From NCBI GenBank assembly GCA_043808785.1, contig JAZDEL010000010.1, positions 60,001 through 92,000 of the forward strand: a stretch of DNA of 32,000 nt, read 5' to 3'. A program made the position numbers and the translations under genes. A model generated the notes under the pieces. The model worked only from the letters and a program-made list of their open reading frames with translations, was not told where the DNA came from and searched no databases. Position 1 is the stretch's first letter. Each line of letters begins with the position of its first letter. Below are positions 1,651-32,000 of the stretch, one piece after another. The DNA is from Candidatus Iainarchaeum sp. (lineage in GTDB: Archaea; Iainarchaeota; Iainarchaeia; Iainarchaeales; JAZDEL01).

Positions 1651-1651
1651 C

Positions 1652-3414: not shown

Positions 3415-3457
3415 GCTGAGCCCCCCGCATCGAGCCGCATTGCCCAATTCGCGCCCG

Positions 3458-4576: not shown

Positions 4577-4615
4577 CTGGGCACCATTCCCCTAATATTC
4601 AACCAAACATACCTT

Positions 4616-5737: not shown

Positions 5738-5780
5738 TCAGCACCGCCGTATGCCGTCTCAAAGCGGACGAAAAACCGCA

Positions 5781-6815: not shown

Positions 6816-6886
6816 TTGAACATCCCCTGCGCGCCAAAACGCAGATAACTATGGTTTGCTAAGGTATATATTATATGCCTTCTCAG

Positions 6887-6975
6887 GCATAAAACTGCTT
6901 TTTGGTACATGGTTCAAACCGCGGGGCATGCCGCCGCGCATAAAACCGCTTTTTGGCGCGCGGTTCAAACCGCGG
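6887..6975. repeat. Two 38-nt direct repeats (6887-6924 and 6938-6975, period 51 nt, 33/38 identical) in the intergenic region upstream of the rfbE-like gene
   Basis: Copy 1 is GCATAAAACTGCTTTTTGGTACATGGTTCAAACCGCGG. Copy 2 is GCATAAAACCGCTTTTTGGCGCGCGGTTCAAACCGCGG. Each ends in a CGCGG-TTCAAA-CCGCG hairpin. An AT-rich TATA-like element (6861-6880) lies between the repeats and the ATG at 6815. Confidence 0.8.
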
Positions 6976-6998
6976 AACAGGCGTAACCGCACAGGGCA

Positions 6999-8027
6999 TT
7001 ATGTGTATTTCCCCAGCCTTTCCCTGTAGAATGAAATCGTCCTTTCAATTCCCTCATCAAGCCCTGTGCTCGGCTTCCAGCCCGTGTCCCTTGAAAACAT
7101 CCTGTGCGAGAAATACATGTCCCCTATTTCAATCCTCTTCCTTTCGGGCGGGAATTCGACATTTCTCCAGCTGCCCGAACCCGCCTCCTTTATTATTTTT
7201 TTCACAATCTCGACAAACCTTATCCCCTTTCCGTTGCCGAGAGAGTAAAATTTCCCCGCGCATTTGCCCTCCTGCGCAGCCATAACCATCGCGTCCGCAA
7301 CATCGCGCACGTATAAATAGTCCCTAAGCATTTTCCCGCCCCCGTAGAGAGGTATTTCCTTTCCTTCAAGCGCGAGCCTTATGAACCAGTTCATTATCCC
7401 GTATTTTGCGTGCTTCATCTGGTGCCTCTCGCCGTAAGTGTTTGTCAGGCGAAGGGAGCAGGCCTTTATCCCGTAAGTGCTTGCGTAGAGCAAATGGTAT
7501 TTCTCCGCCGCAAGCTTGTTTATCCCGTAAACATCCACAGGGTCCGCGGGATGCTTCTCGTCCATGGGCAGGTAAAGCGCCCTGCCGAACTCGCCGCGCG
7601 TTCCCGCGTAAACAACGGTTGCCTTATCGTTGTATTTCCTGCACGCCTCGAGCAGGTTTATGTTCGCGCCTATGTTCAGCTCCATGTCGAGCATCGGGTT
7701 CTCCATGGAATCCACGTGCGAAACCTGCCCCGCGCAGTTGAAAATAATGCCCTTTCCCTTCACTTCTTCCGCGAGCGCCGAAAAGTCGCGCATATCCGCC
7801 TTTACAAACTTCACCCTTTCCCTTATGCCCTCAAGGTTCTCCATATTGAAGCCGTAGGGTTCGAGCATTGCGTCGAAAACAGCCACTTCCGCGCCGAGTT
7901 CGCAGCAGCGGTGTGCGGTGTTCGAGCCTATGAAGCCAAGGCCGCCGAGCACGAGCACGCTCTTTCCCTCCATGCTTTTGATTTTGTAATGTGGCGATTT
8001 TTTCATAATGAATACCTTCCCGCGCAA
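6999..8027 (-). CDS. NAD-dependent epimerase/dehydratase family protein (extended SDR)
   Basis: 342-aa ORF with LGGLGFIGSN Rossmann motif and a YGINKLAAEK catalytic YxxxK. The start is uncertain: 8027 or the ATG at 8006 (MKKSPHYK...). Confidence 0.7.
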   Translation of the reverse strand: MRGKVFIMKKSPHYKIKSMEGKSVLVLGGLGFIGSNTAHRCCELGAEVAVFDAMLEPYGFNMENLEGIRERVKFVKADMRDFSALAEEVKGKGIIFNCAGQVSHVDSMENPMLDMELNIGANINLLEACRKYNDKATVVYAGTRGEFGRALYLPMDEKHPADPVDVYGINKLAAEKYHLLYASTYGIKACSLRLTNTYGERHQMKHAKYGIMNWFIRLALEGKEIPLYGGGKMLRDYLYVRDVADAMVMAAQEGKCAGKFYSLGNGKGIRFVEIVKKIIKEAGSGSWRNVEFPPERKRIEIGDMYFSHRMFSRDTGWKPSTGLDEGIERTISFYRERLGKYT

Positions 8028-8892: not shown

Positions 8893-8970
8893 TCTGCCAA
8901 ACCATTCCCGAAAACCAACCGCGGTTGGGTTTTTTCATTCCCCCGCAAACCAAACCCGCTTTGCTTTTTT

Positions 8971-9837
8971 TCATTCACCGAAAATCTTTCTCCTGATTTC
9001 CCCCGCCCTCGCAAACCTTTTCTTCCTCTCATCCAGAATCCTGCGCAGGTTTTTTATGTTCGCCCAGTACGTGCCAAGCAGGAAATGCGCCCTGCCCTCA
9101 CGGACGCTGTTCACGAATATCAGCCCCAGGCCGGGCACGTGCCTCAAAAGGTCGGGCAGCGCAAGGTTGTAGAGCATCGCCTTGAGCCTGTTTGTGTTTG
9201 CGAGCACGTACTGCTTTTCCTTCCCGAGCTGGCTGCTGCTTTTCCCCCCGTAATGCATTATGGAACTTTTATATGTCTGCACAATCCTGTATCCCGAGTT
9301 CCTTGCCCTGTAGTTCAGGTCGCTCTCCTCCCCATATGCGGGGCTGAATTCCTTCTCGTCAAGCATCCCGACATTTTCGATTACTTCCCGCTTAATCAGC
9401 ATTGTCGCGCCGCTTACAGTGAGCGCGTCCCTGTCCTCTCCCTTCCCGTATCTTCCCGCACGGAAATCGTCGAGGTTCGTGACTTCCTCGCACCCCACAA
9501 CCCCTATGCGCGCGCCGCTCTCCATCACCTTTACGGCATTCGTTAACCAGCCCTTTGTGAGGATTGTGTCGTTGCTCAGCATGAAAAAATATTCCCCTTT
9601 CCCCGCTTTGAAGCCCTGGTTGTTTGCAGCTGCAAACCCGAGGTTTTTTTTGTTCGCAATAAGCCTTGCCCCGGGGAATTCCTTTTTTATTTTCCCCGCG
9701 CTTCCGTCCGTGCTGCCGTTGTCGACAACAATAACCTCGTAATCCGCATAATCGGTATTTTCCCTCAGTGAATTCAGGCAGTCGCGCGTCAGTTCCCAGC
9801 GGTTCCAGTTCAGGATTATTATCGTGGCCTTTTTCAT
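8971..9837 (-). CDS. Glycosyltransferase family 2
   Basis: 288-aa ORF. ATIIILNWNRWELTRDCLNSL...YEVIVVDNGSTDGS is a classic GT2 N-terminus, and a later NDTIL acidic motif follows. The ATG at 9837 directly abuts the stop (9838-9840) of the upstream gene. Confidence 0.8.
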   Translation of the reverse strand: MKKATIIILNWNRWELTRDCLNSLRENTDYADYEVIVVDNGSTDGSAGKIKKEFPGARLIANKKNLGFAAANNQGFKAGKGEYFFMLSNDTILTKGWLTNAVKVMESGARIGVVGCEEVTNLDDFRAGRYGKGEDRDALTVSGATMLIKREVIENVGMLDEKEFSPAYGEESDLNYRARNSGYRIVQTYKSSIMHYGGKSSSQLGKEKQYVLANTNRLKAMLYNLALPDLLRHVPGLGLIFVNSVREGRAHFLLGTYWANIKNLRRILDERKKRFARAGEIRRKIFGE

Positions 9838-10812
9838 TTACTCACGCCCCCTTATGCGCGCAAGCTCCCCCCAGGACATGCCGAGGCTGTTCAGCGAAAT
9901 TATGCCGAACACAAGCGGCACCACGAATGTCACGATGTGCACGATTACCGCAACCGTTATTGCGGTGTTCATGTCAAGCCCGAATGCGAGGAAAACAAAC
10001 CCCACAAGCGCCTCGTGCGTGCCTATGTAAGCGGGCGCGGACGGAAGCATAACCCCCAGGCTTGTTATGCCTGTCAGCACGAAAATCCCGCCTATTCCCA
10101 TGTTCACGCCGAAGTGCGAGAGCACGAGCCAGTACATCAGCGCAATCCCCAGCCACACAAGCAGTGATGAAATTGAGACGATTGCCGCCGAGCGCGCCCC
10201 TTGCCTGAGTGCCAGCCCGCCGTGCATCAGGTCCTCCGCAAGCCCGTGGAGCCTTGCCCCTATATATGGCGTGCGCCCGAGTATTCCGCGGATGAGCGGC
10301 AGGAACCTCGCGGGAAAGAGAAATACGATGAATAAAACCGCAAAGAACGCCAGCGGAAGCAGGACCACGCTGCCGATTTCCGCGGGCATCTCAGGCACAA
10401 GCAGTATTCCCGCGGCAAAAATCCCGAGCAGGGTTATGCCGTCAAGAACCCTCTCCACTATAACCGTTGAAAGGGATTTCGCCTTTCCCGCACCCTTAAG
10501 TTTCGCCAGCAGGTATGCCCTTGCAAGTTCCCCTACCCTCAGCGGGAGGATGTTGTTCACCATGAACGAAACAGCCACTATGTGCGTCGATTCCGCCGTG
10601 CTTATCTCCGCCGCTGGCTTTGCAAGGAACTTCCAGCGCACGCCCCTTGCTATGAGATTCAATGTGAATATCCCGCACAGCAGCAGGAATCCCGCAATGC
10701 CGTATCCTGCAACGTCCTCCGCGACCTTTTGCACGTCCACAATGGCGATAATTGCAATAACCAGCGCAATGCTCACAATCCACGGGATTGCACCCTTTAT
10801 CGCCTTATTCAT
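9838..10812 (-). CDS. Flippase-like multi-pass membrane protein (UPF0104 / LPG-synthase-TM-like family)
   Basis: ORF 9838..10842 trimmed to ATG 10812 (MNKAIKGAIPWIV...). It has about 8 hydrophobic segments. The ARGVRWKFL motif after TM2 resembles the conserved R-W motif of this family. Its position inside a glycosylation operon supports the call. The 10812 start overlaps the alg13-like stop by 8 nt. Confidence 0.55.
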   Translation of the reverse strand: MNKAIKGAIPWIVSIALVIAIIAIVDVQKVAEDVAGYGIAGFLLLCGIFTLNLIARGVRWKFLAKPAAEISTAESTHIVAVSFMVNNILPLRVGELARAYLLAKLKGAGKAKSLSTVIVERVLDGITLLGIFAAGILLVPEMPAEIGSVVLLPLAFFAVLFIVFLFPARFLPLIRGILGRTPYIGARLHGLAEDLMHGGLALRQGARSAAIVSISSLLVWLGIALMYWLVLSHFGVNMGIGGIFVLTGITSLGVMLPSAPAYIGTHEALVGFVFLAFGLDMNTAITVAVIVHIVTFVVPLVFGIISLNSLGMSWGELARIRGRE

Positions 10813-17498: not shown

Positions 17499-17620
17499 GC
17501 GATTAGCAGCGCCTTGCGAGCTCCGGGCAGAAACCCAGTGCAGCACAAATCGCGAGCGGGCTTAACTTCCGGGTTCGGAATGAGACCGGGTGTTTCCCCG
17601 CTGCCATGACCGCTAATCAA
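17499..17620 (-). rRNA. rrf: 5S ribosomal RNA
   Basis: The minus strand reads GATTAGCGGTCATGGCAGCGGGGAAACACCCGGTCTCATTCCGAACCCGGAAGTTAAGCCCGCTCGCG...GCGCTGCTAATC. It contains the universal CCGAAC..GGAAGTTAAGC loop C/helix III block. The termini pair as helix I (GATTAGCGG/CTGCTAATC with one G-U). Length is about 118-122 nt. A TTTT run follows the 3' end. Confidence 0.85.
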
Positions 17621-17725: not shown

Positions 17726-18364
17726 CTACTTCTTCCCCTTTTTCGCCTTCGCAGCCTTGGGTTTCTTCGCGGGCTTCTCCCTCTTCCCTTTCCCCGCACC
17801 TTTCCCCTCCCCTTTGGCAGGCTTCTCCCTGTTGACGCCCCTTATCAGTTCCGCTGCCTTCCTGAGCCCCCTGCGCAGGAATTCCTCGCGCTTTGCGCCC
17901 GCGCAGATTAACTTTCCGTTCTTGAAAAGCAGGAGCGTGAGTTTCGGCTCGGTTATGCGCAGAATCGCCCCGGGAAACTGCTCCGGCTCGTACTCCACGT
18001 TGTCCAATTGCATCGCTGTCTTGAACAAATCAAGCGTCATGTTCAGGTTCGCCGTGGCGACAAGGTTCACGACATTGTACTCGACATTCTTCTGAATCTT
18101 TACGTCCTTCTGAATTTCATTTATTAATTTGCTCGCCTTGTAAACCGCAAGCGAAATCTCCTTTTCGCTGGAAGCGCCGGAACATATGATTTTGCCGTTC
18201 TTGAAAAGGAGCATCGAAACCTTGGGCTCCTTGAGTTTCAAAATCGCCCCGGGAAACTGCTCGGGCTCGTACTCTATGTTCGGGATTGTTACCGCCAGAT
18301 TGTACAAATCAAGGGTTGCGTGCAAATTAGCGCTCGCAACAAGGTTAACGATATTATACTGCAT
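17726..18364 (-). CDS. tbp: TATA-box binding protein with a C-terminal lysine-rich extension
   Basis: 212-aa ORF with two direct TBP repeats (NIVNLVASANL...EYEPEQFPGAILKL...LLFKNGKIICSGA and NVVNLVATANL...EYEPEQFPGAILRI...LLFKNGKLICAGA). About 36 residues of K/G/A/P-rich tail follow. Confidence 0.9.
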   Translation of the reverse strand: MQYNIVNLVASANLHATLDLYNLAVTIPNIEYEPEQFPGAILKLKEPKVSMLLFKNGKIICSGASSEKEISLAVYKASKLINEIQKDVKIQKNVEYNVVNLVATANLNMTLDLFKTAMQLDNVEYEPEQFPGAILRITEPKLTLLLFKNGKLICAGAKREEFLRRGLRKAAELIRGVNREKPAKGEGKGAGKGKREKPAKKPKAAKAKKGKK

Positions 18365-20065: not shown

Positions 20066-20164
20066 TTCCTGCCACTTCTGCAAAGCGGAAAACAATTAAG
20101 CGCCCTTCATTGCCCCCGCTTCCCCGCTGAAAACAATTAAAATACCGCCGCCACATATTCCCAT

Positions 20165-20998: not shown

Positions 20999-21058
20999 AC
21001 CCGCAAAAAAATCAGGCGAACCTTTCGGGCACAGTTTTCCGGGTTTCCGCAGGCTTGC

Positions 21059-22576
21059 TTACGCGAACCTTTCCAGCACCATCTTCTCCATCTCCACCGG
21101 CTGGTTTACCTTTGCATAACTTACCGCAATCTCGAGGCGCCTCTTGTTTGTTGCGTAAATCTCGAAAAGCAGCGCGTTCTTCTGTATCTGCAGGTCCTCC
21201 CTCACTTTTAGGAGGACGCCCGCCTTCTTGTCCGCGGGCGCGCCCGCGAGCCTGGCAATGGTGTTCAGGGTTTTAACATTTACCTTCTTTATCTCCCCCG
21301 CCGCCTGCGCGGTGATGGCTTCCTTGTATTTCCCGATTTCTATGTCCTCGGACCTGAAAATGGTGCCGTGCTGCGCCTTTATTATCTCCTTCATTTTCGC
21401 GAGCGCCTTTCCGCTTGTGAGTATCTCCTTTGCCTTTGCATAGCCCTTGCCAACAGGTGCGCCACCTGCCATCTCAATGAGAACTCCCGCAAGTTCGCAG
21501 CTTTTATCCGCAAGGTTGTCAAACCTTTTCCCCTCGAGGATTTCCATAAGCCATTTCGCCTCAAGCGCGGGGCCGAAAGCCATTCCGCAAGGCTCTGTTC
21601 CGTCCGTTAGTATCGCCTCTACTTTTATTCCCATTGCCTTCCCGACCTCGAGGAACTTCAGTGCCATGCTCTCGGCCTGCTCCTTTGATTTCACCTTCAT
21701 GTCCGGCCCCACAGGCAGGTCAATCACAACAAATTTCGCCCCCACGGATGCCTTTTTCGCCATTACCGAGGCCACAACCTGCCCTTCGGGATCCAGAAGC
21801 AGGGGGTGCTCTATCTTGATTATTTTATCGTCCGCAGGCGCGAGCTCGACAGCCCCGCCCCATGCAATAACCCCCCCGACCTTCTCGGTTATCTGCTTTA
21901 TCTCCGCGAGGGGAAGTGAAACATTGCACATCACTTCCATCGCATCCGCGGTTCCCGCTGCCGAGGTTATCGAGCGCGAGGAAGTTTTCGGCATATTGTA
22001 GCCCGCAGCCGCGATTATGGGCACAATCGCCATTGTTGTCCTGCCGTTCAGCCCCCCTATGCTGTGCTTGTCAACACACAATCCCTTTATTTCAAGTGTT
22101 TTGCCGTTCTCCACAAGCGCCTTTGTCATTGAAACCGATTCATCGAGATCGAAGCCGTTTACGTAAACCGCGGAAACGAACGCGGCAGCCTCCACTTCGC
22201 TCAGCCTGTTCTCCGCAAGGTCATTGACAATCTCCTTTATCTCCGCAAACTTCAGTTTCCTGCCGTCCAGTTTCGCCTTTATGTATTCCACGCTCTTCGG
22301 CTTGTCCACAACAGTAACCTCGACCCTCTTTCCGCCCTTCGTGCCGAGGAACCTGCTCACGTCCCTGAACATCCCGATTTCGTCCTTCTTCACCATTGTT
22401 TCCGTGAAATCGACAACCGTGTTCATGCACTTCCCGTTCTTGGGGTTTGCAATAGAAACCCTGTCCAGCGGCAGTATTCCGAGCTCCTTCGCGGTCTGGC
22501 TGTTCATTATGGAGACCATCTTTCCGGAGGCTATGTCAATGCTCCTCACGCGCATGATTTTCGTGTACTGCTCCAT
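21059..22576 (-). CDS. deoA: AMP phosphorylase (archaeal thymidine-phosphorylase family, DeoA-type)
   Basis: About 505 aa. It has an archaeal-type N-terminal extension domain (RVRSIDIASGKMVSIMNSQTAKELGILPLDRVSI). The glycosyl-transferase family 3 core follows (DKHSIGG, TSSRSITSAAGTAD). Start placed at ATG 22576 rather than GTG 22588, because the TTAAATAC element (22607-22614) then sits about 30 nt upstream. Confidence 0.8.
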   Translation of the reverse strand: MEQYTKIMRVRSIDIASGKMVSIMNSQTAKELGILPLDRVSIANPKNGKCMNTVVDFTETMVKKDEIGMFRDVSRFLGTKGGKRVEVTVVDKPKSVEYIKAKLDGRKLKFAEIKEIVNDLAENRLSEVEAAAFVSAVYVNGFDLDESVSMTKALVENGKTLEIKGLCVDKHSIGGLNGRTTMAIVPIIAAAGYNMPKTSSRSITSAAGTADAMEVMCNVSLPLAEIKQITEKVGGVIAWGGAVELAPADDKIIKIEHPLLLDPEGQVVASVMAKKASVGAKFVVIDLPVGPDMKVKSKEQAESMALKFLEVGKAMGIKVEAILTDGTEPCGMAFGPALEAKWLMEILEGKRFDNLADKSCELAGVLIEMAGGAPVGKGYAKAKEILTSGKALAKMKEIIKAQHGTIFRSEDIEIGKYKEAITAQAAGEIKKVNVKTLNTIARLAGAPADKKAGVLLKVREDLQIQKNALLFEIYATNKRRLEIAVSYAKVNQPVEMEKMVLERFA

Positions 22577-23563: not shown

Positions 23564-24277
23564 TCACAATTCCTTCCCCAGTTCTTCCGCCGCCTTCTTC
23601 ATGTCCTTCGCGGCGTAAATCCCGCGCCCGACAATCGCGTGCCAGCTTTCCCCCGCAGCCTTTGCCCCTTCGCTCAGCGAGCCGCCCTGCGCAACAAGGC
23701 CGGGGGAGTAGAGTACAGGTTTTACACCTTTTGCCTCAAGCAGTTCGCGGTACTCGCGGATTTTCTCGGGCTTGTTTCCTGGAACGACAAAATCCTTCAC
23801 GCCGAGTTCAGCGGCAATTTCGTAAATTTTCTTCGGCGCGGCTGGCGCGATGAAACCGCCGTCGCTTTCCAAAAACTTCGGGTGGGTCATTTCCCCCCCG
23901 ACAATTACCCCGAGCCCCGCCTTTTGGCACGCCTTTATCCACGCCCTCTCGGTTTCGGGCCCCGTAAGGGGGAACAAAATCACGGCATCCACGCCCGCCT
24001 TTTTGCAGACGCCCGCAAATTTCTCAGCAACATCGGGAATATCAGTCGCAGCTTTCTGGTGGTCGTAAATTATCGGCTTTTTAGTGTGCTTCCTCGCCGC
24101 TTTCACAACCGCACCCAACCCGTACGCAAGCGCGAGTTCAAACCCGACCTTGTACCCGCCGATTTTTTTTATGTTTGCGGTTTCCTTGACAAGTTTCTCA
24201 AACTGTGCAAGGGTAGGGACGTCGCAGGCAGGGATTATGCTGCGCTCAATGCTGATTATGCTTTTTGCAGCGCACAT
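23564..24277 (-). CDS. pyrF: Orotidine 5'-phosphate decarboxylase
   Basis: ORF 23564..24304 trimmed to ATG 24277, which overlaps the pyrE stop as TAATG. DHQKAATDIPDV (DxKxxDIP), SPGLVAQGG and IVGRGIY are the OMP decarboxylase family blocks. Confidence 0.75.
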   Translation of the reverse strand: MCAAKSIISIERSIIPACDVPTLAQFEKLVKETANIKKIGGYKVGFELALAYGLGAVVKAARKHTKKPIIYDHQKAATDIPDVAEKFAGVCKKAGVDAVILFPLTGPETERAWIKACQKAGLGVIVGGEMTHPKFLESDGGFIAPAAPKKIYEIAAELGVKDFVVPGNKPEKIREYRELLEAKGVKPVLYSPGLVAQGGSLSEGAKAAGESWHAIVGRGIYAAKDMKKAAEELGKEL

Positions 24278-24921
24278 TATTTCCCCTCCTCCCCCTCCTG
24301 CCACTTCTGCGGGTTTTTGAAGTACTCGGCTGCGCTTTTGTACTCCTCCCCCGAAAGTTTCCCCGCCTTGTGCAGTTCCTCTAAGAGTTCCCCCACAGCG
24401 AGAACTGAATGCAGTTTGTAACCCCGCTCCGCTAACTGTTCCTTCCCCCCCTGCCCCCTGTCGACAAGCACGATAACATCCTTCACAACAAGCCCCGCTC
24501 CCTTGAGCACTTCAATAGCCTCGAACTTGCTTTCCGCAGTGGTTATCAAATCGTCGCAGAGCAGGATCGTTTCCCCTTTTTTGAAAACACCCTCTATCCC
24601 CTGCCCCGTGCCGTAATCCTTCCTCTCCTTGCGCGGGTAAATCATGGGCACGTTCGCCTCGAGGCTGAACGCGGTGGCAATCGGCAGCGCGGCATAAGGA
24701 ACCCCCGCAACCCTGTCGAACTTAAGTTTGTTTTTTTTCGCGAGCGCATCGAATTCCTTTGCAACCAGCCCCAAAGTTTTCGGGTATGAAACAAGCAGGC
24801 GCAGGTCGAGGTATATCGGGCTTTTCAAACCCGATTTAAGGGTGAACAAACCAAACTTCACGGCTCCTATTTTGTGCAATTCGATGCAGAGGTTTTTTTT
24901 GTTGTCCTTAACCATACACAA
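24277..24921 (-). CDS. pyrE: Orotate phosphoribosyltransferase
   Basis: 214-aa ORF. VKFGLFTLKSGLKSPIYLDLR and the PRPP loop ILLCDDLITTAES, then VLVDRGQGG, resemble the UMP-synthase-type OPRTase lineage. Confidence 0.85.
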   Translation of the reverse strand: MCMVKDNKKNLCIELHKIGAVKFGLFTLKSGLKSPIYLDLRLLVSYPKTLGLVAKEFDALAKKNKLKFDRVAGVPYAALPIATAFSLEANVPMIYPRKERKDYGTGQGIEGVFKKGETILLCDDLITTAESKFEAIEVLKGAGLVVKDVIVLVDRGQGGKEQLAERGYKLHSVLAVGELLEELHKAGKLSGEEYKSAAEYFKNPQKWQEGEEGK

Positions 24922-26095
24922 CTTCCCCCTTCACTATAGTCTTCACCACAACGCCTTTTATCCTTTTCCCGTCGAAGGGGGTCCAGCCGCACTTGCTCAT
25001 CTGCTCCGAGTTCCTTATCTCGTGCTCCCTGCCCATGTCGACAACAGCCAAATCCGCGTCAAATCCCGTTCTTATTTCCCCCTTCCCCCGCAAACCAAAA
25101 ATCCTTGCAGGGTTTCTGGAGGACACTTCAACCAGCTTGCGCATGGTTATTTTCTTTTGGTTCACGGCGTCAATCATAAGCGGCAGCATTGTCTGCACGC
25201 CCGGCATTCCGTTCGCGCCCTTTGCCTTGTCCCCGCGCGTGTGCGGGGCGTGGTCTGAGGATAGGCAGTCGATTGTGCCCTCGGCGAGCGCCTCCCACAG
25301 CGCCTTCGCATCCGCGCGCGTGCGCAGGGGAGGGCTGACAGATGAAAAATTCCCAAGCCTTTCGGAATCATCCTCCGTGAGTAAGAGATGGTGCGGGCAA
25401 ACTTCACACGTGAGTAAGCCCTTCGCGCTTTTTTTCTCCCTCACGATTGCCCTTGTCCCGTCCTTCGTGGAAACGTGGCACACATGCAACTTATTTCCCA
25501 CCTCGCGCCTGACCTCGAGCGCCCTTTCAATTACCCCCTTCTCCTCCCCCCTGTCCTCCGCATGCACACAAACAACAAACCCGCGCGCCTTCGCGATTTC
25601 GAAAATTTCCTTCAGTTTTTTTCCATCGCCGACAAAAAGGTCGCCGTATTGCGAACCCAAATAAACCTTGAACGAGTTCACGCCCTGAACTTTTTTCAGT
25701 TCCGCAATGTTCCTCTCCGTAGCGCCAAAGTGCATTCCGAACCCTATCCAGGAACCCGCGGATGCGATTTTCATTTTTTCATCAAGTGCCTGCTGCGTTG
25801 TTGTCGCGGGCTTCGTGTTCGGCATGTCGAAAACCTTGGCAACCCCTCCCGCAGCTGCAGCCGCGCTCCCCGTTTTCCAGTCCTCCTTGTATTCAAATCC
25901 AGGCGTGCGAAAGTGAACATGCGCATCTATTGCAGCGGGAATTACCGCCATGCCCGCGCAGTTAACCGTGCGCGCTGCGGGGGTTTTTATTTTCCCCTCG
26001 CTTGCAGCAGTGATTTTCCCGCCATCAATCCCTATCCACATCCTCTGCAATTTTCCCCTGTAGAAAGCCCTGCAGTTTTCAAGGATTAAGTCCAT
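24908..26095 (-). CDS. pyrC: Dihydroorotase
   Basis: 395-aa ORF with the amidohydrolase metal motif IDAHVHFRTPG, later HAED and SDHAPH blocks, and a DADLAVVD tail. Its 3' end overlaps the pyrE start, giving a pyrC-pyrE-pyrF operon. Confidence 0.85.
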   Translation of the reverse strand: MDLILENCRAFYRGKLQRMWIGIDGGKITAASEGKIKTPAARTVNCAGMAVIPAAIDAHVHFRTPGFEYKEDWKTGSAAAAAGGVAKVFDMPNTKPATTTQQALDEKMKIASAGSWIGFGMHFGATERNIAELKKVQGVNSFKVYLGSQYGDLFVGDGKKLKEIFEIAKARGFVVCVHAEDRGEEKGVIERALEVRREVGNKLHVCHVSTKDGTRAIVREKKSAKGLLTCEVCPHHLLLTEDDSERLGNFSSVSPPLRTRADAKALWEALAEGTIDCLSSDHAPHTRGDKAKGANGMPGVQTMLPLMIDAVNQKKITMRKLVEVSSRNPARIFGLRGKGEIRTGFDADLAVVDMGREHEIRNSEQMSKCGWTPFDGKRIKGVVVKTIVKGEVVYG

Positions 26096-26148
26096 GTGAC
26101 CGCCTTTTTACTATTGATTTAAGGATATATATAATATGGGCTGGTGCA
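26025..26148. repeat. Direct repeat copy A (pyrC first about 24 codons + 5' UTR + promoter)
   Basis: Hand alignment to 27091-27213 (offset 1066 nt). About 100 nt are near-identical with 5 substitutions, then the promoter part has small indels. The two + strand shadow ORFs in the track end in the same peptide (...LQFSPVESPAVFKD), which confirms the duplication independently. Confidence 0.9.
26125..26137 (-). promoter_or_regulatory. TATA-rich putative pyrC promoter element
   Basis: An ATATATATAATAT run lies about 30-40 nt upstream of the pyrC ATG (26095). The same element is duplicated in degenerate form at about 27193-27203 in repeat copy B. Confidence 0.4.
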
Positions 26149-26247
26149 CTTGTTTCGGGCAATATTTCGGGCGGATGCCGGAGCCGCAGATGGCGTTCGG
26201 GCGAGGTGGCGGAGTCGGCTGGCTGGCCCGGATGAACGAACAAAGCA

Positions 26248-26844
26248 TTATTCCCTGAAATCCTTTATCGGGAATATGAGGTTAACGTATGTAGCGCCAT
26301 CCTGCTTAATCAGCGTGTTCTCCCTGAAGTTGAACTTCTTTTTGTACCACTCCGCCCTGTGCGGGTATGAGTCAAGGGTAATGTACATCCCCCCCACAAG
26401 CGGGACAATCTTCTTCACTATAAAGCCCATTGCATAGCAAACCAAAAAAGGGCCGACAACGCCCTTGTTCTGGCAAGCCTTGTCCACAGCCAGCCGCCCT
26501 ATTTTGATTGCGGGAATCTTGCCGTAATCCTTCCCGCGCCTGCGCCGGGTTTCCCTGTCTATCGTGATTGCATCCTGCGACAAAGCAAAGAAGCCCATGA
26601 CTTTTTTGCCGCCTTTTTGGACCGCCACATATGTGCGGTTCCAGCCCTCTTCTTTCTGGGCAAGCGCGTCGTTTTTTATGAAATCGTTCAGGTCCCTGTC
26701 CCCGGCATGCCCGGAAAAGCAGTCGAACGCCGACACGTCATGCTCTTCTGTAAACGGCTCCACTACGAGGCAGGAGGCGTGAAGTTCTTCGCTCATCGTC
26801 AACGGCGAGGCTATCTCTCGTGGCTTTCGTAAGTCGCTATGCAT
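26248..26844 (-). CDS. GNAT-family N-acetyltransferase toxin (TacT/KacT/AtaT-like)
   Basis: The blocks FDCFSGH..DLNDFIKNDALAQKEEGWNRTYVAV, VMGFFALSQDAI, IPAIKIGRLAVDKACQNKGVVG follow the pattern of DUF1778-associated GNAT toxins (FDCG...L..FL, TYV, GYY.LS, IGRLAVD..QG.G). The start is ambiguous: 26844, which overlaps the upstream small gene, or ATG 26796. Confidence 0.7.
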   Translation of the reverse strand: MHSDLRKPREIASPLTMSEELHASCLVVEPFTEEHDVSAFDCFSGHAGDRDLNDFIKNDALAQKEEGWNRTYVAVQKGGKKVMGFFALSQDAITIDRETRRRRGKDYGKIPAIKIGRLAVDKACQNKGVVGPFLVCYAMGFIVKKIVPLVGGMYITLDSYPHRAEWYKKKFNFRENTLIKQDGATYVNLIFPIKDFRE

Positions 26845-26957
26845 GACTGCAGTATCCGCACGTCCTTTTCAGTCATGCCCTTTCCCGTATGCAAATCCAG
26901 AAACCTTTCGGCATCCTTCCCCTTCAGTTCGGGGGTCATAATAATCGGCTTTGCCAT
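26811..26957 (-). CDS. Putative cognate antitoxin (48-aa small protein immediately upstream of the GNAT toxin)
   Basis: ORF 26811..27056 trimmed to ATG 26957 (MAKPIIMTPELKGKDAERFLDLHTGKGMTEKDVRILQSCIATYESHER). AGGTGA lies 6 nt upstream and a TATA-rich run sits at about 26975-26990. The position and size fit an antitoxin. The sequence is not an obvious DUF1778/RHH match by eye. Confidence 0.45.
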   Translation of the reverse strand: MAKPIIMTPELKGKDAERFLDLHTGKGMTEKDVRILQSCIATYESHER

Positions 26958-27083
26958 GCATTTCACCTTTATACGTATATATCGCCGGTTAGTGTATTTA
27001 TTCTTTACTGTGGGGCGCCGGTGATTCCCCTGTGCCATAAATGCCACATGCACCACTATATCGGAATTTCCCTTCCCGGTTTT

Positions 27084-27161
27084 TCACGCGTCAATCCCTA
27101 TCCACATCTTCTGCAATTTTCCCCTGTAGAAAGCCCTGCAGTTTTCAAGGATTAAATCCAT
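27084..27161 (-). pseudogene. Truncated pyrC 5' remnant (25 codons then TGA)
   Basis: The minus strand translates to MDLILENCRAFYRGKLQKMWIGIDA*, against MDLILENCRAFYRGKLQRMWIGIDGGK... for the intact gene. Weaker similarity with a roughly 12-nt deletion seems to continue to about 27064. Confidence 0.8.
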
Positions 27162-27213
27162 AATGCCGCCTTTTTACTATTGATTTAAGGAACTATATAA
27201 ATGGGGATGGTGC
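27091..27213. repeat. Direct repeat copy B (decayed duplicate of the pyrC 5' end + promoter)
   Basis: See copy A. TCAATCCCTATCCACATC[T]TCTGCAATTTTCCCCTGTAGAAAGCCCTGCAGTTTTCAAGGATTAA... is shared by both copies. Confidence 0.9.
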
Positions 27214-27261
27214 GGGGGGTTGGAGGGGCGGGTGCAACATGATTGCACAGCCAACACAGCG

Positions 27262-27489
27262 CTATTGCCCGGTTATTCTAAACTGTAGTTCTTTCAGGAA
27301 GCGCTTCAATCTGTGAAAAGGGCCCATTTTAATCGGCTGAGATTTTAAAATATTTTCGATCCGCTGACGCTCCTTAGCCTCTTCACGTGCCTTATCAATT
27401 TTTGAGGCGTCCTCGGGGCTAAGCTTGCCGTTATTTCTGCCAGTATCTACAAAATCAACTGTTGCTCCGCTCCTCCTTATATTAAACAC
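27262..27489 (-). CDS. Hypothetical small protein (75 aa)
   Basis: The GTG start at 27489 is preceded by GAGGAG (27495-27500). The central segment is charged and helical (SPEDASKIDKAREEAKERQRIENIL). I recognise no family. GC is lower than in the core genes. Confidence 0.35.
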   Translation of the reverse strand: MFNIRRSGATVDFVDTGRNNGKLSPEDASKIDKAREEAKERQRIENILKSQPIKMGPFHRLKRFLKELQFRITGQ

Positions 27490-27558
27490 CAGAACTCCTC
27501 ATACTAATTGCCGTGCAATAAGCTTTTTACGTGTTTCCTCCATATACTTTTCGTTTAT

Positions 27559-28299
27559 ATGCGCCGAAAAAGCGGGAGAAATTGGAAAACGCGGCACGGG
27601 GCATGGAACCCCCAGCGGCACGGAAACCAGCCCCAAGATACGCCGGCATCCGCGAGCCAGCTTTTCCGCAGATACAGGAAATTCATAGCGCCAATCGGAA
27701 TAATCCTGCTGATAATGCTCCAATACCTTCCCGAATATGCTTTCCCTGCCTGGATTCTGGAGAATGGGTTCCTTGCTTCGGTTCTTGCCTCCTTTGCCTT
27801 CACCTCGCTTAACGGCATGCTGTTTTTGGCTGTTTTATTGATAACCGCATGGTTTGCATATAAGTCCTGGCTGTTAAGGATACGGTTCCTGAGGGCAAGG
27901 AACCCCCTCCTGAAAAAGCTGGTTATTGTGTTCATGGCGCTGATTTTAATAAGCAGCATAAAGGCGGATTCCGCCCCCGGCTGGATTGCGGGCTGGCTTT
28001 TGTTCTTTGCATCGGCTTACTTCTGCCTTGCCCTGTTCTGGCTTGCCCTAAAGTGGATAGACAACCTTGACCTGAGTTCCGACCTCACAATCTGGCTCCT
28101 GAGGATTGGCGGCGCAATACTCGCCATGTTCGGGCTTTTTTCGCTGCTTTTCGGGACGGTTGTTTCGGTTATTTCTTTCTCGTTCACAAATTCGATGCTT
28201 TCATTGATTCCCCCTCTCATCGGGGCGTTAATCCTGCTCCTTGGCCTGTTCGGCATCTTCCGCGCAAACAGAAGGCATGCGATGGTTAGGGTTTGGTGA
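27559..28299 (+). CDS. Hypothetical multi-pass membrane protein
   Basis: ORF 27508..28299. At least 5 hydrophobic segments follow a basic N-terminal stretch. Start uncertain: ATG 27559 or ATG 27715. No recognisable domain. Confidence 0.5.
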   Translation: MRRKSGRNWKTRHGAWNPQRHGNQPQDTPASASQLFRRYRKFIAPIGIILLIMLQYLPEYAFPAWILENGFLASVLASFAFTSLNGMLFLAVLLITAWFAYKSWLLRIRFLRARNPLLKKLVIVFMALILISSIKADSAPGWIAGWLLFFASAYFCLALFWLALKWIDNLDLSSDLTIWLLRIGGAILAMFGLFSLLFGTVVSVISFSFTNSMLSLIPPLIGALILLLGLFGIFRANRRHAMVRVW

Positions 28300-28431
28300 G
28301 CGAGAAAACAGTGAGCATTTACTAGATAACGCCGAAAGGGAGCGGCGTGATGAAGAAGATTAGGGTGATGTAGTGCGGACCTGCTCTGGCGGGCAAATAT
28401 AGTGGCATGAACTATTTTTGAGTATGAGTGC

Positions 28432-29148
28432 TTAATCAGGTTTTGACGTTAAGAACTTTGCCCCTCTAAAGTTTTTGGCAGAGATTTTAGTAAGGGCGAT
28501 CCCAAACCATATAAAAAGCAAAGCAACCAAACTCAACAACAAAACTTCTATCTCAGTCGCTTTAATTATGAAAAATGCTGCCACTATTGAAAGGAACAAA
28601 ATTACTGAAAAAGACAAAGTTCCCACAAAGAACCACCAAGCTTTAACTAAGATGACCCATGCATTGTGCAGAACGCGGAAATTTTTTATGGTTTGAGGGA
28701 TTATAAAAAAATAAACTAGGATTACAATGCTTAATAGAAACGCCGAATAAAATAAAACAAATGGCGGAATCTGCGCCATACCGGATAGCAAATTTTCATT
28801 TAGATTTAATGCCGCTAAAACGAAGGCCAAGTCCACGATAAGGAATGCATATGAAAACGTAAAAAACAGCCCAAGTAGTAAAGCAGCCAAAATGATGGGG
28901 ACACTCAGAAATAGAGGCCCAACCACATTATCATAGCTTGAATCCAAGTGCAAATCAAAATTTGTGTTGCGGCCTATGCCGCTATATGGTGTCTTTTTTA
29001 AATAGTAGATTATCGCATATCCTCCAAGTAAGACTAATGCAGTAAAATAGGGCAAAATATCTAATATGTTAGGGATTTTAGAAATGTAGTCCCATGCGAA
29101 AATTATCTTAAATGTTTCAAGGAACCCAAACCAATCGGTCCAAACCAT
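28432..29148 (-). CDS. Hypothetical multi-pass membrane protein (about 6 TM), low-GC
   Basis: 238-aa ORF, strongly hydrophobic and rich in Phe/Ile/Leu, with AT-rich codon usage unlike the core genes. It is divergent from the NTPase gene across a 160-nt AT-rich spacer. Confidence 0.6.
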   Translation of the reverse strand: MVWTDWFGFLETFKIIFAWDYISKIPNILDILPYFTALVLLGGYAIIYYLKKTPYSGIGRNTNFDLHLDSSYDNVVGPLFLSVPIILAALLLGLFFTFSYAFLIVDLAFVLAALNLNENLLSGMAQIPPFVLFYSAFLLSIVILVYFFIIPQTIKNFRVLHNAWVILVKAWWFFVGTLSFSVILFLSIVAAFFIIKATEIEVLLLSLVALLFIWFGIALTKISAKNFRGAKFLTSKPD

Positions 29149-29310
29149 ACTGGATTTTGCAGGTAAACGGTTTAAAATAGGCTATTGAAGAGCGTTGGAA
29201 GCATGTGTTCCTCATATGGTCCACCGGAAATGCGGTCTAAGAACATTTTTAAGTAATCGCTTGCAAGTAGTTATGGTATGCATAGGTGGCAACAACGATA
29301 GTTGGTCGAG

Positions 29311-31563
29311 ATGGATGAAGATATTGTCTTAACTCTAAAAAACGATTGGGATTACCCGCCACATTATGAAAAACAACAAGGTCATTTTATTGGGCGCAAA
29401 GAAGAGCTTGAAAACTTAGTGGATAATTTATCAAGAAAAAATAGTGGCTCTATTTTGATAGCAGGGGATAGGGGGGTAGGTAAAACTGCCCTTGTATACA
29501 AAGCGTTGCAAGAAGTCAAAAAGAGTAAGGATAGGTCTATTTTCATAATCCTCAATGCATCTCAACTGGAGATGGCGTGTGAGGCTGACGGCACAAGTGA
29601 CTTGAAAGAAAAAATAATAAAAAATCTAATCAGGAGGCTTTATGCCATAATGCGAGACGAGAAGGATCTCAAAGACGTCTTCCCCTTTATCGAAATGCTC
29701 TATAGAAAAGTAAGGTTTAAAGAAGAGACCGTAACAATGGTAAGAAACATTAGACGAGAGGAATCTGAAACAGAATCGGTTGAATACGAAAAACAACTTA
29801 AACTGCCGGTGGAATACACAGTAAGTATTGGGTCAAGTCTGGCGGCATTGTTCTTAATTCTGAATCCACTTACCCCGAATGTAGCAATTAACGCAATACT
29901 GCCAATAGCAACGGCAAGTGTTGGTCCGTTTGCGTTTCTGTATGCTCGGAAATATCAAAAGACAAAGTCAGCAAAGAAATCACAAGCCGCGAATGCTGAG
30001 CAATACTATGAATTAGACGATAATATTGGAAATCTCGAATTTGACTTGGAACAAGTACTTGAGAGAGTGCATTCCAAGGGCTACAAAGTGGTTTTTGTAA
30101 TTGATGAGTTAGACAAAATAGATAACCAAAATGTCACAATAGGTGCAATAAAAAGTTTCAAAAATTTATTCAATCTCTCATCCGCAATTTTTGTCCTGAT
30201 TGCAGGGCGGGACACGTTTGATAGGATTCAAGCTGGTAAAGGGCCAAGGACCCCAGACTACACACTTTTTACGCACAAGATATTTTTAAAGCGGCCAACA
30301 TTCTGGGATATTGAGAGTTTTGTGGATGAGATAATAGCAAAGCCAGACATGGCAAAGCTCAAACAAAACGACAAATATAAAGAATTCAGAAATTTTCTTT
30401 CTTTTGAAGCAAAAACTGACTTTTTTGAGTTGTATGCCATACTCCGAGACTACATCAAATTTGATAGGAGCGGCTCTACCCTTGCAATACCTAGATTAAC
30501 GACTAAGGAATTGACCAAAGCAAGGCTGCAAAAAGCAATGGGTCAAGTATTTGGTCGGAGCGGGTGGGGCGTGCCCTCCAAGTGGCATATGGATGAAGAA
30601 ATACTAACAAGCCTATATCTCTTAATAGATGGGCTTGCTGAGAAGGATAAAGGTGACGAGTTTGAAGATGACTTTGGAAATCATCCTACGGATGGTGAAA
30701 ATGCACCCATAAAGCGGGATTTGTGCAAATACTTAGAGCGGCTCGGTGCCATCGAAAAAATCAGTGTTCGGGAAGAGGTAGTTGGCAATAAACCTAAAAA
30801 AATTACGAAGTATCGATGGATGGGCTTCTGCAGTAAGGTTCCTTCTGAGATACGGGAAATAATGATGGAGCATGAGATGACATTTATCGATAGGGCTAGT
30901 TCGCTCAAAAAAATGGTTGTGGAGATAGGTAACCTTTACAAAGTAGCTAACTCTGAAAGAACTTATTCAATGAACGGCTTTCAAAGCAACTCTCGAGAGA
31001 TACTGACGCTTGTTCAAAAACTGACGAATAGAAACTTGGTGCCAATCTTTGATCAGATAACGCCTATAGAGCAAGACCTTAATACTAAATTTCCAAAATT
31101 GCATAAACGTGAGGAAGTAGAGCAACACATAAAGAATCTTGAGGGGGAGATTAATGCCCTTAAAGAGTACTCCCGAATCGCTCTAGAAAATATTATTAAA
31201 GAAAAAGTCGCAGATATGGAATCTTCCCAACTCCAGACAAATGTGGGATTGTTTAGTGCCATTCAAGGATTAAGAAATAACGTAGTACATGGGGGCATAT
31301 TGCACTCAGTAATTTTCAAAAAAGATCTTTCTAAACAATTATTAATGTCTGTAAATATGTCCTCTGATCTAATAAACCAGAATAAACAATTAATACGCCA
31401 AAATTCAAAAACATTAAAAATCGTAAATATTCAAACGGACCCCTCTTTTGACTATAAAGATATGAAACATTTGGGAGGTGGTTTTTCAAGCGTAAAAGTG
31501 ACAGATAATTTTGAAGAACTTGGGCGGGTAATCAAGAAACTAATGCACTGGTTTTTATCATAA
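29311..31563 (+). CDS. KAP-like P-loop NTPase with an intramolecular TM hairpin and a C-terminal HEPN-like (RNxxxH) region
   Basis: The track ORF starts at TTG 29302; I prefer ATG 29311. Walker A GDRGVGKT is at 29464-29487. Two hydrophobic helices lie at 29818-29946. Walker B VVFVIDELDK is at 30088-30117. A coiled-coil-like segment follows, then LRNNVVHGG (RNNVVH at 31273-31290). The codon usage is low-GC. Confidence 0.8.
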   Translation: MDEDIVLTLKNDWDYPPHYEKQQGHFIGRKEELENLVDNLSRKNSGSILIAGDRGVGKTALVYKALQEVKKSKDRSIFIILNASQLEMACEADGTSDLKEKIIKNLIRRLYAIMRDEKDLKDVFPFIEMLYRKVRFKEETVTMVRNIRREESETESVEYEKQLKLPVEYTVSIGSSLAALFLILNPLTPNVAINAILPIATASVGPFAFLYARKYQKTKSAKKSQAANAEQYYELDDNIGNLEFDLEQVLERVHSKGYKVVFVIDELDKIDNQNVTIGAIKSFKNLFNLSSAIFVLIAGRDTFDRIQAGKGPRTPDYTLFTHKIFLKRPTFWDIESFVDEIIAKPDMAKLKQNDKYKEFRNFLSFEAKTDFFELYAILRDYIKFDRSGSTLAIPRLTTKELTKARLQKAMGQVFGRSGWGVPSKWHMDEEILTSLYLLIDGLAEKDKGDEFEDDFGNHPTDGENAPIKRDLCKYLERLGAIEKISVREEVVGNKPKKITKYRWMGFCSKVPSEIREIMMEHEMTFIDRASSLKKMVVEIGNLYKVANSERTYSMNGFQSNSREILTLVQKLTNRNLVPIFDQITPIEQDLNTKFPKLHKREEVEQHIKNLEGEINALKEYSRIALENIIKEKVADMESSQLQTNVGLFSAIQGLRNNVVHGGILHSVIFKKDLSKQLLMSVNMSSDLINQNKQLIRQNSKTLKIVNIQTDPSFDYKDMKHLGGGFSSVKVTDNFEELGRVIKKLMHWFLS

Positions 31564-31626
31564 TTGCTTTAAAAATTGCGCAGGATCGTAGGATTGATTT
31601 ATGAATCAGATAAAACACTTTCAGGA

Positions 31627-32000
31627 GTGTCGGCTGCCGTGAACCGCAACAATATCGCAGATTGGATAATCGTAATTTTCACATTTTTGGCACTCATAAC
31701 TTTAGTTTATCTCGGAGAAGCAGGAGAACTTGACGTTTTCGCAGCGCTGGTCATGCTGGCGAGTGTGATTTTCAGCATTTTGCTCTCCGCAATCGCCGCA
31801 GGCGGTGCCCTCTGGCTGATTTACCTTATTTTTAAAGAATTGGAAAACGTATCTATAGAAAAACCGCCACAAATCTGGAAGGCTTTTTTCAGATTAATTA
31901 GGCCTAATGCTAATGTTGAGGGCCAATTGCCCCTAACGGATTTGCTTATTGCCCTTATTTTTTTGTATGTGCTCGCAATGGCGCTTACCGAAATTTTCTT
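31627..32000 (+). CDS. Hypothetical membrane protein, 3'-truncated by the window end
   Basis: This frame is not in the track because it has no stop in the window. It is open from the stop at 31570 to 32000. GTG 31627 is preceded by AGGAG; TTG 31576/31594 are alternative starts. My hand translation is VSAAVNRNNIADWIIVIFTFLALITLVYLGEAGELDVFAALVMLASVIFSILLSAIAAGGALWLIYLIFKEL..., with at least 3 hydrophobic segments. Confidence 0.4.
   Translation, partial: MSAAVNRNNIADWIIVIFTFLALITLVYLGEAGELDVFAALVMLASVIFSILLSAIAAGGALWLIYLIFKELENVSIEKPPQIWKAFFRLIRPNANVEGQLPLTDLLIALIFLYVLAMALTEIF

Follow-up and report, generated by a model that had tools for sequence, protein, structure and literature searches.

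The stretch of DNA analyzed here, referred to as the window, comprises 32,000 nt of a 233,549-bp contig of Candidatus Iainarchaeum sp. (JAZDEL010000010.1, positions 60,001 to 92,000), the source being a metagenome-assembled genome of a Candidatus Diapherotrites archaeon (DPANN). On its minus strand lies an intact dihydroorotase gene, pyrC, preceded by a segment that encodes a homolog of the GNAT toxins (MFH1225516.1, V1676_06970) together with a small partner protein, and this two-gene cassette is enclosed by two long direct repeats, each containing the promoter region and 5′ end of pyrC (Table 1). Related GNAT cassettes in other genomes are also bracketed by direct repeats of local sequence, a cross-locus result that is new. 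All of the evidence is computational, and most of the loci compared with the window come from metagenome bins.

Table 1. Features of the pyrC locus and its cassette, in window coordinates. The functions given for the TATA-like elements and the upstream spacer are putative, as read from the sequence.
Feature	Position	Strand	Description and evidence
pyrF	23564-24304	-	Pfam OMPdecase; downstream of pyrC
pyrE	24277-24921	-	Pfam Pribosyltran; downstream of pyrC
pyrC	24908-26095	-	Intact dihydroorotase gene, 395 aa, at the head of the pyrC-pyrE-pyrF run; open reading frame; Pfam Amidohydro_1, E 1e-26; MFH1225515.1
Repeat copy A	26014-26147		TATA-like box, short leader, ATG (26095) and first 27 codons; continuous with pyrC
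TATA-like element of copy A	26125-26137	-	A/T-rich, ATATTATATATAT, about 30 nt upstream of the pyrC ATG
Segment between the repeats	26148-27079	-	Read as the inserted cassette; 932 bp, G+C content 0.524
Downstream spacer	26148-26247	-	G+C-rich, 100 nt, from the GNAT stop codon to copy A; no T-run, significant hairpin or match elsewhere
GNAT gene	26248-26796	-	Acetyltransferase, 182 aa, homolog of the tRNA-acetylating toxins TacT, AtaT, KacT and GmvT; profile and fold; MFH1225516.1
Partner gene	26811-26957	-	48 aa, presumed antitoxin, undescribed family; conserved immediately upstream of GNAT in L001, L002, L008 and L009
Upstream spacer	26958-27079	-	122 nt, upstream of the partner gene
Repeat copy B	27080-27213		Relic, now displaced, of the promoter and 5′ end of pyrC; matched by the L003 pyrC protein in tblastn at 27161-27090, E 1.5e-4
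Relic open reading frame	27084-27161	-	25 codons, MDLILENCRAFYRGKLQKMWIGIDA and stop
TATA box of copy B	27194-27201	-	Consensus archaeal TATA box TTTATATA, 32 nt upstream of the relic ATG, now facing the cassette
Atypical region	27214-32000		Upstream of copy B; orphan small open reading frames, two multi-pass membrane open reading frames, KAP/STAND-like NTPase

The two repeat copies form a single family in a repeat search, 134 nt long, 87% identical without gaps and spaced 1066 nt apart; blastn aligns them with 88.8% identity over 134 nt (E = 1.5e-45). Their 65-nt core occurs exactly twice in the window and not once in 100 shuffled versions, and neither nhmmer nor blastn detected a third copy in the window. 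The minus-strand layout is the same in both: a TATA element, a leader of about 30 nt containing AGGCGG, an ATG, and the codons for MDLILENCRAFYRGKLQ(R/K)MWIGID. Copy A runs directly into pyrC, the product of which scores 350 bits against TIGR00857 (NCBIfam cutoff 279) and can be aligned from residue 2-3 both to family models and to its nearest homolog. Copy B breaks off after 25 codons and, up to the break, shows one synonymous change and one R-to-K change relative to pyrC. Thus, the proposal of the initial annotation that direct repeats duplicate the promoter and 5′ end of pyrC, with one copy continuous with the intact gene and the other a relic, is borne out, as is the offset of 1066 nt that it gave. 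Its measurements require correction, because the repeats extend over 134 nt and not about 124 bp, and the copies are separated by 932 bp and not 942 bp. The almost base-for-base alignment that it described applies to the coding part, where 69 nt contain 2 substitutions, and not to the 52 nt upstream, which carry 8-10 changes including one-base indels. The weaker homology that it traced from copy B to about position 27064 was not recovered: beyond the 134 nt the collinear flanks score no better than shuffles, and at best there is a noncollinear match between 27072-27032 and 25947-25905 with a p value of about 0.03 before correction for four tests.

As had been proposed, only the GNAT toxin homolog and its small upstream partner lie between the repeats, both in the orientation of pyrC. 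The 48-aa open reading frame comes first and the 182-aa open reading frame follows 14 nt downstream; at 932 bp, the segment is comparable in size to the inserts of other loci (about 880-1150 bp). The spacer ahead of the partner gene contains TATA-like A/T-rich elements at 27001-26994 and 26982-26975, which may constitute a promoter belonging to the cassette, and an AGGTGA Shine-Dalgarno-like motif 5 nt before the ATG; the motif AAAGGTGAAA...ATGGCAAA also precedes the partner gene in L028 and L059. Hairpins, terminators, and attC-like structures were not detected in the spacers, which fold like shuffled sequences (z −0.16 to +1.1; attC covariance models were not run separately). Because the spacer that follows the GNAT stop codon has neither a T-run nor a hairpin, transcripts may continue into pyrC-pyrE-pyrF, making read-through from the cassette into pyrC plausible. 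Patterns of 24 and 32 nt taken from the spacers had no match elsewhere, no virus or metagenome contig carrying the spacers was found, and blastn of the whole unit against plasmids and phages returned nothing. Searches of the open reading frames between 26148 and 32000 with Pfam, NCBIfam, PHROGs, and PADLOC revealed no recombinase, integrase, or transposase domain.

The assignment of the larger gene to the toxin branch of the GNAT family rests on profile and fold. In a comparison with the PDB, a profile of 29 homologs matched AtaT2, TacT1-3, AtaT, KacT, and GmvT with E values of 4e-23 to 6e-15, whereas other GNATs appeared only above 7e-5. The AlphaFold2 model of the protein (predicted local distance difference test score, 92) gave as its top 38 Foldseek matches in the PDB 34 chains of AtaT, TacT, KacT, or GmvT and four chains of 7byy, designated a "bacterial toxin," and the template-modeling scores were 0.65-0.75 for the toxin chains compared to about 0.55 for other GNATs. 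The protein also matches phrog_1758 (E = 1e-27) and is 33-34% identical to GNAT genes in 3,207 plasmid records (enterobacterial plasmids), the top match listing a DUF1778 gene; the relatives seen on viral contigs are distant, with at most 36% identity. Residue Y151 is invariant in the 29 homologs; its aligned counterpart is a Tyr in AtaT2 (7f37) and a Phe in the TacT3 chain 6g96, which we take to be a Tyr-to-Phe mutant construct. The acetyl-CoA pyrophosphate loop (Q/RxxGxG/A; window positions 26430-26470, residues ~110-120) has the form QxKG-xG in all other homologs and contains a one-residue insertion, QNKGVVG, in the window protein and in its 82% identical relative P0002. Pfam GNAT models match 27 of the 29 homologs and miss the window protein as a single sequence (no match with E below 0.1), perhaps because of this insertion, which might also weaken its activity. 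Both cassette genes are under purifying selection relative to the homologous locus L001, with ratios of nonsynonymous to synonymous substitution rates of 0.12 and 0.16, the value for the partner gene being 0.12.

The partner protein belongs to a family defined by the N-terminal motif MA[KR]PIxxTPxLxGKDAxxF, of which the window protein has the MAKPI form. A hidden Markov model of the family identified a member of 46-54 aa adjoining GNAT in 46 of 90 fetched loci, which derive from methanogens, Micrarchaeota, Nanoarchaeota, Aenigmatarchaeota, Woesearchaeota, Iainarchaeum, and a few bacteria. The partner gene usually sits just upstream of GNAT. It is convergent with GNAT, downstream on the opposite strand, in Methanobacterium and certain Methanobrevibacter loci (L013, L021, L023-L025, L054, L061, L075, L079, and L089); in L033, L062, and L077 it is downstream on the same strand. 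As a single sequence the partner matches nothing in Pfam, NCBIfam, or the PDB, and profiles of 5 and 27 sequences likewise match nothing in Pfam or the PDB; the absence of a DUF1778 or ribbon-helix-helix (RHH) domain in these single-sequence and profile searches rules out its identification as a DUF1778/RHH antitoxin. It does match phrog_13585 (E = 5e-5). The single-sequence search for partner homologs returned three real relatives along with spurious matches (P0220, P0222, and P0223), long repetitive proteins with several weak motif matches that look like translated tandem repeats and were rejected.

The cassette therefore resembles the GNAT/DUF1778 toxin-antitoxin systems TacAT, AtaRT, KacAT, and GmvAT in being a conserved two-gene operon with the small gene first and adjacent to a GNAT whose profile and predicted fold best match these toxins. 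It is unlike them in that its partner is a 48-aa protein devoid of an RHH/DUF1778 domain and in that its GNAT carries the one-residue loop insertion. Short non-DUF1778 open reading frames are known to precede other TacT-like GNATs, and whether such pairs are toxin-antitoxin systems is unproven (PMC9177977). We therefore refer to a toxin-antitoxin-like cassette with a probable new type of antitoxin. The toxin-antitoxin label attached to the locus by the initial annotation rests on homology, with the GNAT matching TacT, AtaT, and KacT and the partner not being a DUF1778/RHH antitoxin.

The same cassette is present in other genomes in unrelated contexts. L001, a Logan contig, has only window positions 26250-26958 in common with the window, at 81% identity, from one base before the partner ATG to within the GNAT stop codon, and its flanks are unrelated. 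In four loci of the Methanosarcina group (L045, L070, L060, and L046), the common sequence is limited to 760-990 nt with 87-91% identity, beginning at the promoter TTTTTTATATAA, some 110 nt ahead of the partner start codon, and reaching about 40 nt past the GNAT stop, again with unrelated flanks; pairs of these loci have a further 60-85 nt in common on one or both sides. Two Methanolobus loci, L034 and L053, share 827 nt at 92.5% identity. A unit of about 0.85-1.0 kb is thus found in different places of related genomes, with ends that are not sharp. When P0016 and P0054 were examined for occurrence of one cassette in more than one context, a single context emerged for each. The cassette is often found among other toxin-antitoxin genes: L004 carries two VapBC pairs (1233-4058), L051 has HicA on both sides (1527-2985), and L034 contains two minus-strand open reading frames (1566-2200) that by eye resemble a nucleotidyltransferase/HEPN pair.

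Self-comparison of 99 GNAT loci detected direct repeats on either side of the cassette in 18 loci other than the window, altering the picture given by an earlier look at six loci, in which no flanking repeats had been seen. Under a tight definition, which required a repeat of at least 30 nt with each copy no more than 600 nt from the cassette, repeats bracketed 11 of 76 cassettes with full flanks, compared to 32 of 2103 control intervals of the same length from the same loci (1.5%). After loci that were at least 90% identical had been collapsed, the count was 11 of 66, corresponding to an approximate binomial p value of 5e-9, or 10 of 65 with the window excluded. A second null combined left and right flanks taken from different loci and placed 12 of 81 loci above its 99th percentile; one of these, L022, was discounted because its match is low-complexity and A/T-rich, with copies 1346 nt apart. 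Two further loci, L049 and L053, have borderline repeats of 23-24 nt. The bracketing repeats are specific to each locus, showing no similarity from one locus to another, and range from 33 to 303 nt in length. In nine clear loci, the start-to-start spacing is 914-1263 nt and the inserts measure 881-1153 bp, compared to 1066 nt and 932 bp in the window. L001 ends 9 nt past the GNAT stop (10552-10561), and in L034 a repeat copy lies at the contig end (1-131); such ends would be expected if assemblers broke at the bracketing repeats, and the true frequency of the signature may thus be underestimated.

At three of these loci the logic of the window, an intact gene end on one side of the cassette and a relic of it on the other, recurs at the 3′ end of a gene. 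The repeat in L028 is the last 47 nt of the upstream open reading frame through its TAA stop, with 98% identity. In L077, from Methanobrevibacter, it spans 128 nt, made up of the 3′-terminal 115 nt of an intact gene for an HI0933-like FAD oxidoreductase and the 13 nt that follow; the relic, which lies after the cassette, carries a 33-nt deletion and is succeeded by cbiC and by a 420-aa open reading frame that presumably resembles hemL. A convergent Csa3/HFX_2341-like gene supplies the repeat of L056, from Methanosarcina, with its final 104 nt, and here the relic lies upstream of the cassette. L046 has as its repeat the 5′ 131 nt of a Schlafen/AlbA_2-type gene, with the left copy ending some 12 nt short of the conserved unit; a tandem array of nine 11-nt units (AAAGCCGCACT) stands right after the right-hand repeat copy (5989-6127), at the interruption of the AlbA_2-type gene. 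L045 is from the complete isolate genome of Methanosarcina hadiensis (NZ_CP136241.1, 771049-781522). Among ten inserts, we detected no terminal inverted repeats (the lowest p value was 0.013, with nothing consistent), no shared end motif, and no recombinase gene, and the only feature common to them is the Shine-Dalgarno-like sequence together with the start of the partner gene. At some loci, the conserved unit and the repeat are separated by an additional 50-320 nt.

Collectively, these data are best accounted for, with a probability of about one-half, by a single duplicative insertion that produced a long, variable duplication of its target. Copies of identical extent at both ends of the insert and flanks devoid of significant homology are what one duplicating event predicts; with recurrence at unrelated targets, imprecise ends, and no recombinase or inverted repeats, they argue for a cassette that was inserted and its target duplicated in one event. 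The recurrence across loci favors such an event, which is close to the second route envisaged by the initial annotation, an insertion into pyrC rescued by duplication, without its separate rescue step. The lack of terminal inverted repeats, shared end motifs, and a recombinase, together with the extra DNA at some loci, suggests imprecise capture of a fragment rather than the action of a dedicated transposase. In this scheme, a two-gene cassette of about 0.9 kb with its own putative promoter would have entered pyrC 81 nt into the coding region, and the event would have duplicated a 134-bp target in which the first 27 codons are preceded by 52 nt of promoter and leader. The duplication could have arisen by strand breakage at two points separated by about 134 nt, with fill-in following the joining of the fragment, or, alternatively, by a template switch during repair or replication that re-entered the chromosome upstream of its point of exit. 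The downstream copy, A, would have stayed joined to pyrC and the upstream copy, B, would have become the 25-codon relic, the two diverging by about 11% since the insertion. Because copy A remained fused to pyrC, the pyrC-pyrE-pyrF run kept a promoter and a full reading frame. Selection may retain those events in which the duplicated segment includes a gene end, since the gene thereby survives, and addiction-module behavior, if real, would explain why the cassette has not been lost by recombination between the repeats.

The main alternative, which is plausible although less likely, is that a circle carrying its own copy of the pyrC promoter and 5′ end (the cassette itself or a larger element of which it is the remnant) integrated at pyrC, either site-specifically, with a recombinase supplied in trans or since lost, or by a Campbell-type single crossover. 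Copy A would then stem in part from the element, and the native start, now displaced, would be copy B. An imperfect direct repeat with a gene end, the gene being reconstituted, is the classic signature of such elements. e14 and phage 21, for example, integrate at the 3′ end of icd and replace the gene end. In dusA islands the island supplies a new 5′ end and leaves the original as a relic, with imperfect direct repeats (PMC4482086). In common with these elements, the pyrC locus has two copies of a gene end in the form of imperfect direct repeats, a gene that is intact, and a relic beyond the insert, and two direct repeats of identical extent do surround the whole insert, as a Campbell-type integration would leave them. 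Moreover, the locus stands exactly where core-like genes (G+C content 0.54) give way to an atypical low-G+C region with orphan and defense-like genes; PHROG matches are obtained for both cassette genes and, more weakly, for a neighboring 75-aa open reading frame (E = 7.5e-4); the better conservation of the coding part of the repeat than of its promoter part is what two functional versions would show; and archaeal integrated elements are known in tandem arrays at one site (PMC6563490). In the window, however, there is no third repeat copy, and neither the 932-bp segment nor the 4.8 kb on the right contains an integrase or other recombinase gene, whereas the dusA and icd elements span many kilobases and have an integrase next to the attachment (att) site. 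The dusA att cores are conserved across hosts, with a 21-bp consensus, whereas the cassettes related to that of the window are bracketed by different local sequences, such that a circle would first have had to acquire a piece of each target. Among these related cassettes, we found no common att sequence or target gene, the repeats being dissimilar and lying in different genes, and no virus or metagenome contig searched carried the 5′ codons of pyrC or the cassette spacers: a degenerate 44-nt codon pattern of the pyrC N terminus had 0 matches in JGI metagenome and IMG/VR viral contigs. Finally, inserts of ~0.9-1.1 kb recur in independent loci, and the repeated decay of large elements to this size is unlikely.

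An origin in two events, in which a tandem duplication of the pyrC 5′ end preceded the arrival of the cassette at the junction or a disruption was followed by a restoring duplication, appears improbable. Short intergenic tandem duplications do exist in the window (45-, 33-, and 30-nt pairs at 6887-6982, 8911-8979, and 20070-20140), and a relic copy would offer a permissive landing site. Yet the cassette would have had to land exactly at the junction, with both copies full and of identical extent, or the rescuing duplication would have had to restore frame and promoter precisely, and 10 other nonredundant loci would each need the same coincidence. The failure to find a relative with the duplication and without the cassette weakens this scenario further. 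Of the searches that the initial annotation had recommended, that for the cassette elsewhere was productive, with unrelated contexts as the result, and that for the empty site was not: neither an empty site nor a close relative of the window's genome was found in the searched collections, and the exact 45-mer of the repeat had 0 matches in contigs of species-representative genomes. Very improbable, in our assessment, is an assembly artifact in which two strains or molecules were joined into a chimera through pyrC 5′ sequence or the cassette, despite the metagenomic source, the position of the L034 repeat copy at a contig end, and the end of L001 9 nt past the GNAT stop. The copies differ at 15 positions (about 10 substitutions and several one-base indels in a gapped alignment) and nowhere agree over more than 46 consecutive bases, such that neither collapse nor false duplication of k-mers can account for them; their longest exact runs in common, 18, 46, and 26 nt, make them distinct at normal assembly k-mer sizes. 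Copy B passes into DNA other than pyrC at a point within the gene, and copy A adjoins the spacer of the cassette; real molecules must contain both of these junctions. Similar structures also occur in independent assemblies, including the 250-nt flanking repeat in the complete isolate genome represented by L045.

Several points weigh against a single duplicative insertion. The coding part of the repeat is less diverged than the part upstream (Fisher p 0.004-0.02), which is unexpected if one copy is a decaying relic, although at synonymous sites alone (1 of 11.8) the divergence does not differ from that of the upstream part. The 11% divergence could equally be an initial difference between a host segment and an element-borne mimic of it. 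Since no empty site was found for any locus, the insertion itself is deduced from structure, and we know of no prokaryotic mechanism for variable target duplications of 33-300 nt. The p values for the bracketing repeats are approximate, given that the control intervals were drawn from the same loci and overlap one another. The set of positive loci is limited in size and heterogeneous: some of its members differ in kind, such as L051, in which the cassette is flanked by two HicA genes, and the 250-nt repeat of L045 lies 185-320 nt from the unit. The signature may also not be specific to this family of GNAT cassettes.

Comparison with other mobile DNA places the cassettes near, and outside, several known classes. 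Like the target-site duplications of insertion sequences, miniature inverted-repeat transposable elements, and casposons, the bracketing repeats are locus-specific and surround a discrete unit that is found in many contexts. Known prokaryotic target-site duplications are short and of fixed length, 2-15 bp. The repeats described here, by contrast, vary from 33 to 303 nt, and they bracket units with imprecise ends that lack both terminal inverted repeats and a transposase. Casposon duplications are mentioned in a study of archaeal elements (PMC6563490). The unit also differs from an integron cassette, given the absence of attC-like hairpins from its spacers and of an integrase. Also similar in appearance are the cis-mobilizable elements (CIMEs) derived from integrative elements, as related to ICESt1/3 of Streptococcus thermophilus, which are small integrase-less segments between att-like direct repeats near a larger island. 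The pyrC cassette likewise is a small segment without an integrase between two att-like direct repeats, and it is unlike CIMEs in that no cognate integrative element, integrase, or shared att sequence was found. Our search of the literature, the coverage of which was incomplete, found no account of toxin-antitoxin cassettes bracketed by long local duplications.

The surroundings of the locus change in character at the cassette. Positions 1-26100 contain ordinary core genes with a G+C content of 0.52-0.56, among them a glycosylation cluster with AglB/STT3, a PHO4 phosphate transporter gene, a TBP gene, a 5S rRNA gene, and a gene for a KsgA-type methylase, followed by pyrF, pyrE, and pyrC, all three on the minus strand. 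To the right of pyrC, the G+C content falls from 0.54 to 0.50 and then to 0.385. The block at 28400-32000 with this low value (0.385) includes a gene for a 753-aa KAP/AAA_16/STAND-like NTPase (29302-31563) with weak matches to PADLOC PDC-S27 and to the NCBIfam DS41_1 anti-phage protein, preceded by orphan multi-pass membrane open reading frames (~27745-28299, plus strand, and 28432-29148, minus strand), and resembles a defense or foreign island that continues past the end of the window. Two small minus-strand open reading frames (27262-27489 and 27499-27723) lie immediately upstream of copy B. A 75-aa open reading frame here (V1676_06980) is a singleton with 0 homologs among 5.8 billion proteins and the weak PHROG match noted above, which is to phrog_13227; a 74-aa open reading frame overlaps a plus-strand open reading frame and may not be real. 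No tRNA or other known RNA was found at the insertion site.

Among the same 5.8 billion proteins, the nearest other pyrC protein is 56% identical and is encoded at L003, where pyrE is 77% identical to that of the window. There, pyrC overlaps pyrK within a pyrB-I-D-K-C-E operon, whereas pyrC of the window is preceded by a promoter of its own and leads the pyrC-pyrE-pyrF run; the difference in order makes the pyrC 5′ end a synteny breakpoint as well. Despite this arrangement in L003, no relics of pyrB, pyrI, pyrD, or pyrK adjoin copy B in the window. Elsewhere in the window, a lone 5S rRNA gene (17501-17617, minus strand, 80 bits) adjoins the TBP gene (17726-18364, minus strand), the two half-domains of which appear as a 107-nt direct repeat with 75% identity (17895-18001 and 18174-18280). 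Four paralogous NAD-dependent epimerase/dehydratase genes within one glycosylation cluster (2380-8027) have in common a 30-nt 5′ stretch with 73-100% identity. Including a pair at 21016-21109, there are four short tandem duplications of 30-47 nt with 70-82% identity, intergenic or nearby, and small local duplications may accordingly be common in this genome.

How toxin-antitoxin modules move, whether inside one chromosome or from one to another, is poorly understood; although they go by the name of "mobile cassettes," mobility genes are absent from most of them. The present analysis provides a testable footprint for such movement, namely a unit of about 0.9 kb with imprecise ends and long local duplications that preserve the neighboring gene. 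If the structure at pyrC is real, then the promoter of copy B, with its consensus TATA box, faces the cassette through the 25-codon relic, and transcription of the cassette may run into pyrC-pyrE-pyrF; an addiction-type module would thereby be linked to the synthesis of pyrimidines in a DPANN archaeon with a small genome. Were the two repeats to recombine, a 1066-bp circle would be released and a single pyrC start would remain, and an addiction module would select against cells that lose the cassette. As a more tentative and on balance doubtful extension, the 48-aa/GNAT cassette could represent a new small mobile module of archaea, with neither a recombinase of its own nor defined ends, that enters DNA by duplicating tens to hundreds of bases; the range of duplication sizes (~33-300 nt) might then reflect a feature of the host, such as lagging-strand gaps or histone-wrapped units. 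If this is true, such a module can land inside gene ends, even that of pyrC, without destroying the gene and while capturing its promoter. Furthermore, the 48-aa family, which is widespread in methanogens and DPANN archaea, would be the third type of antitoxin for TacT-like GNAT toxins, after DUF1778 and DUF4065.

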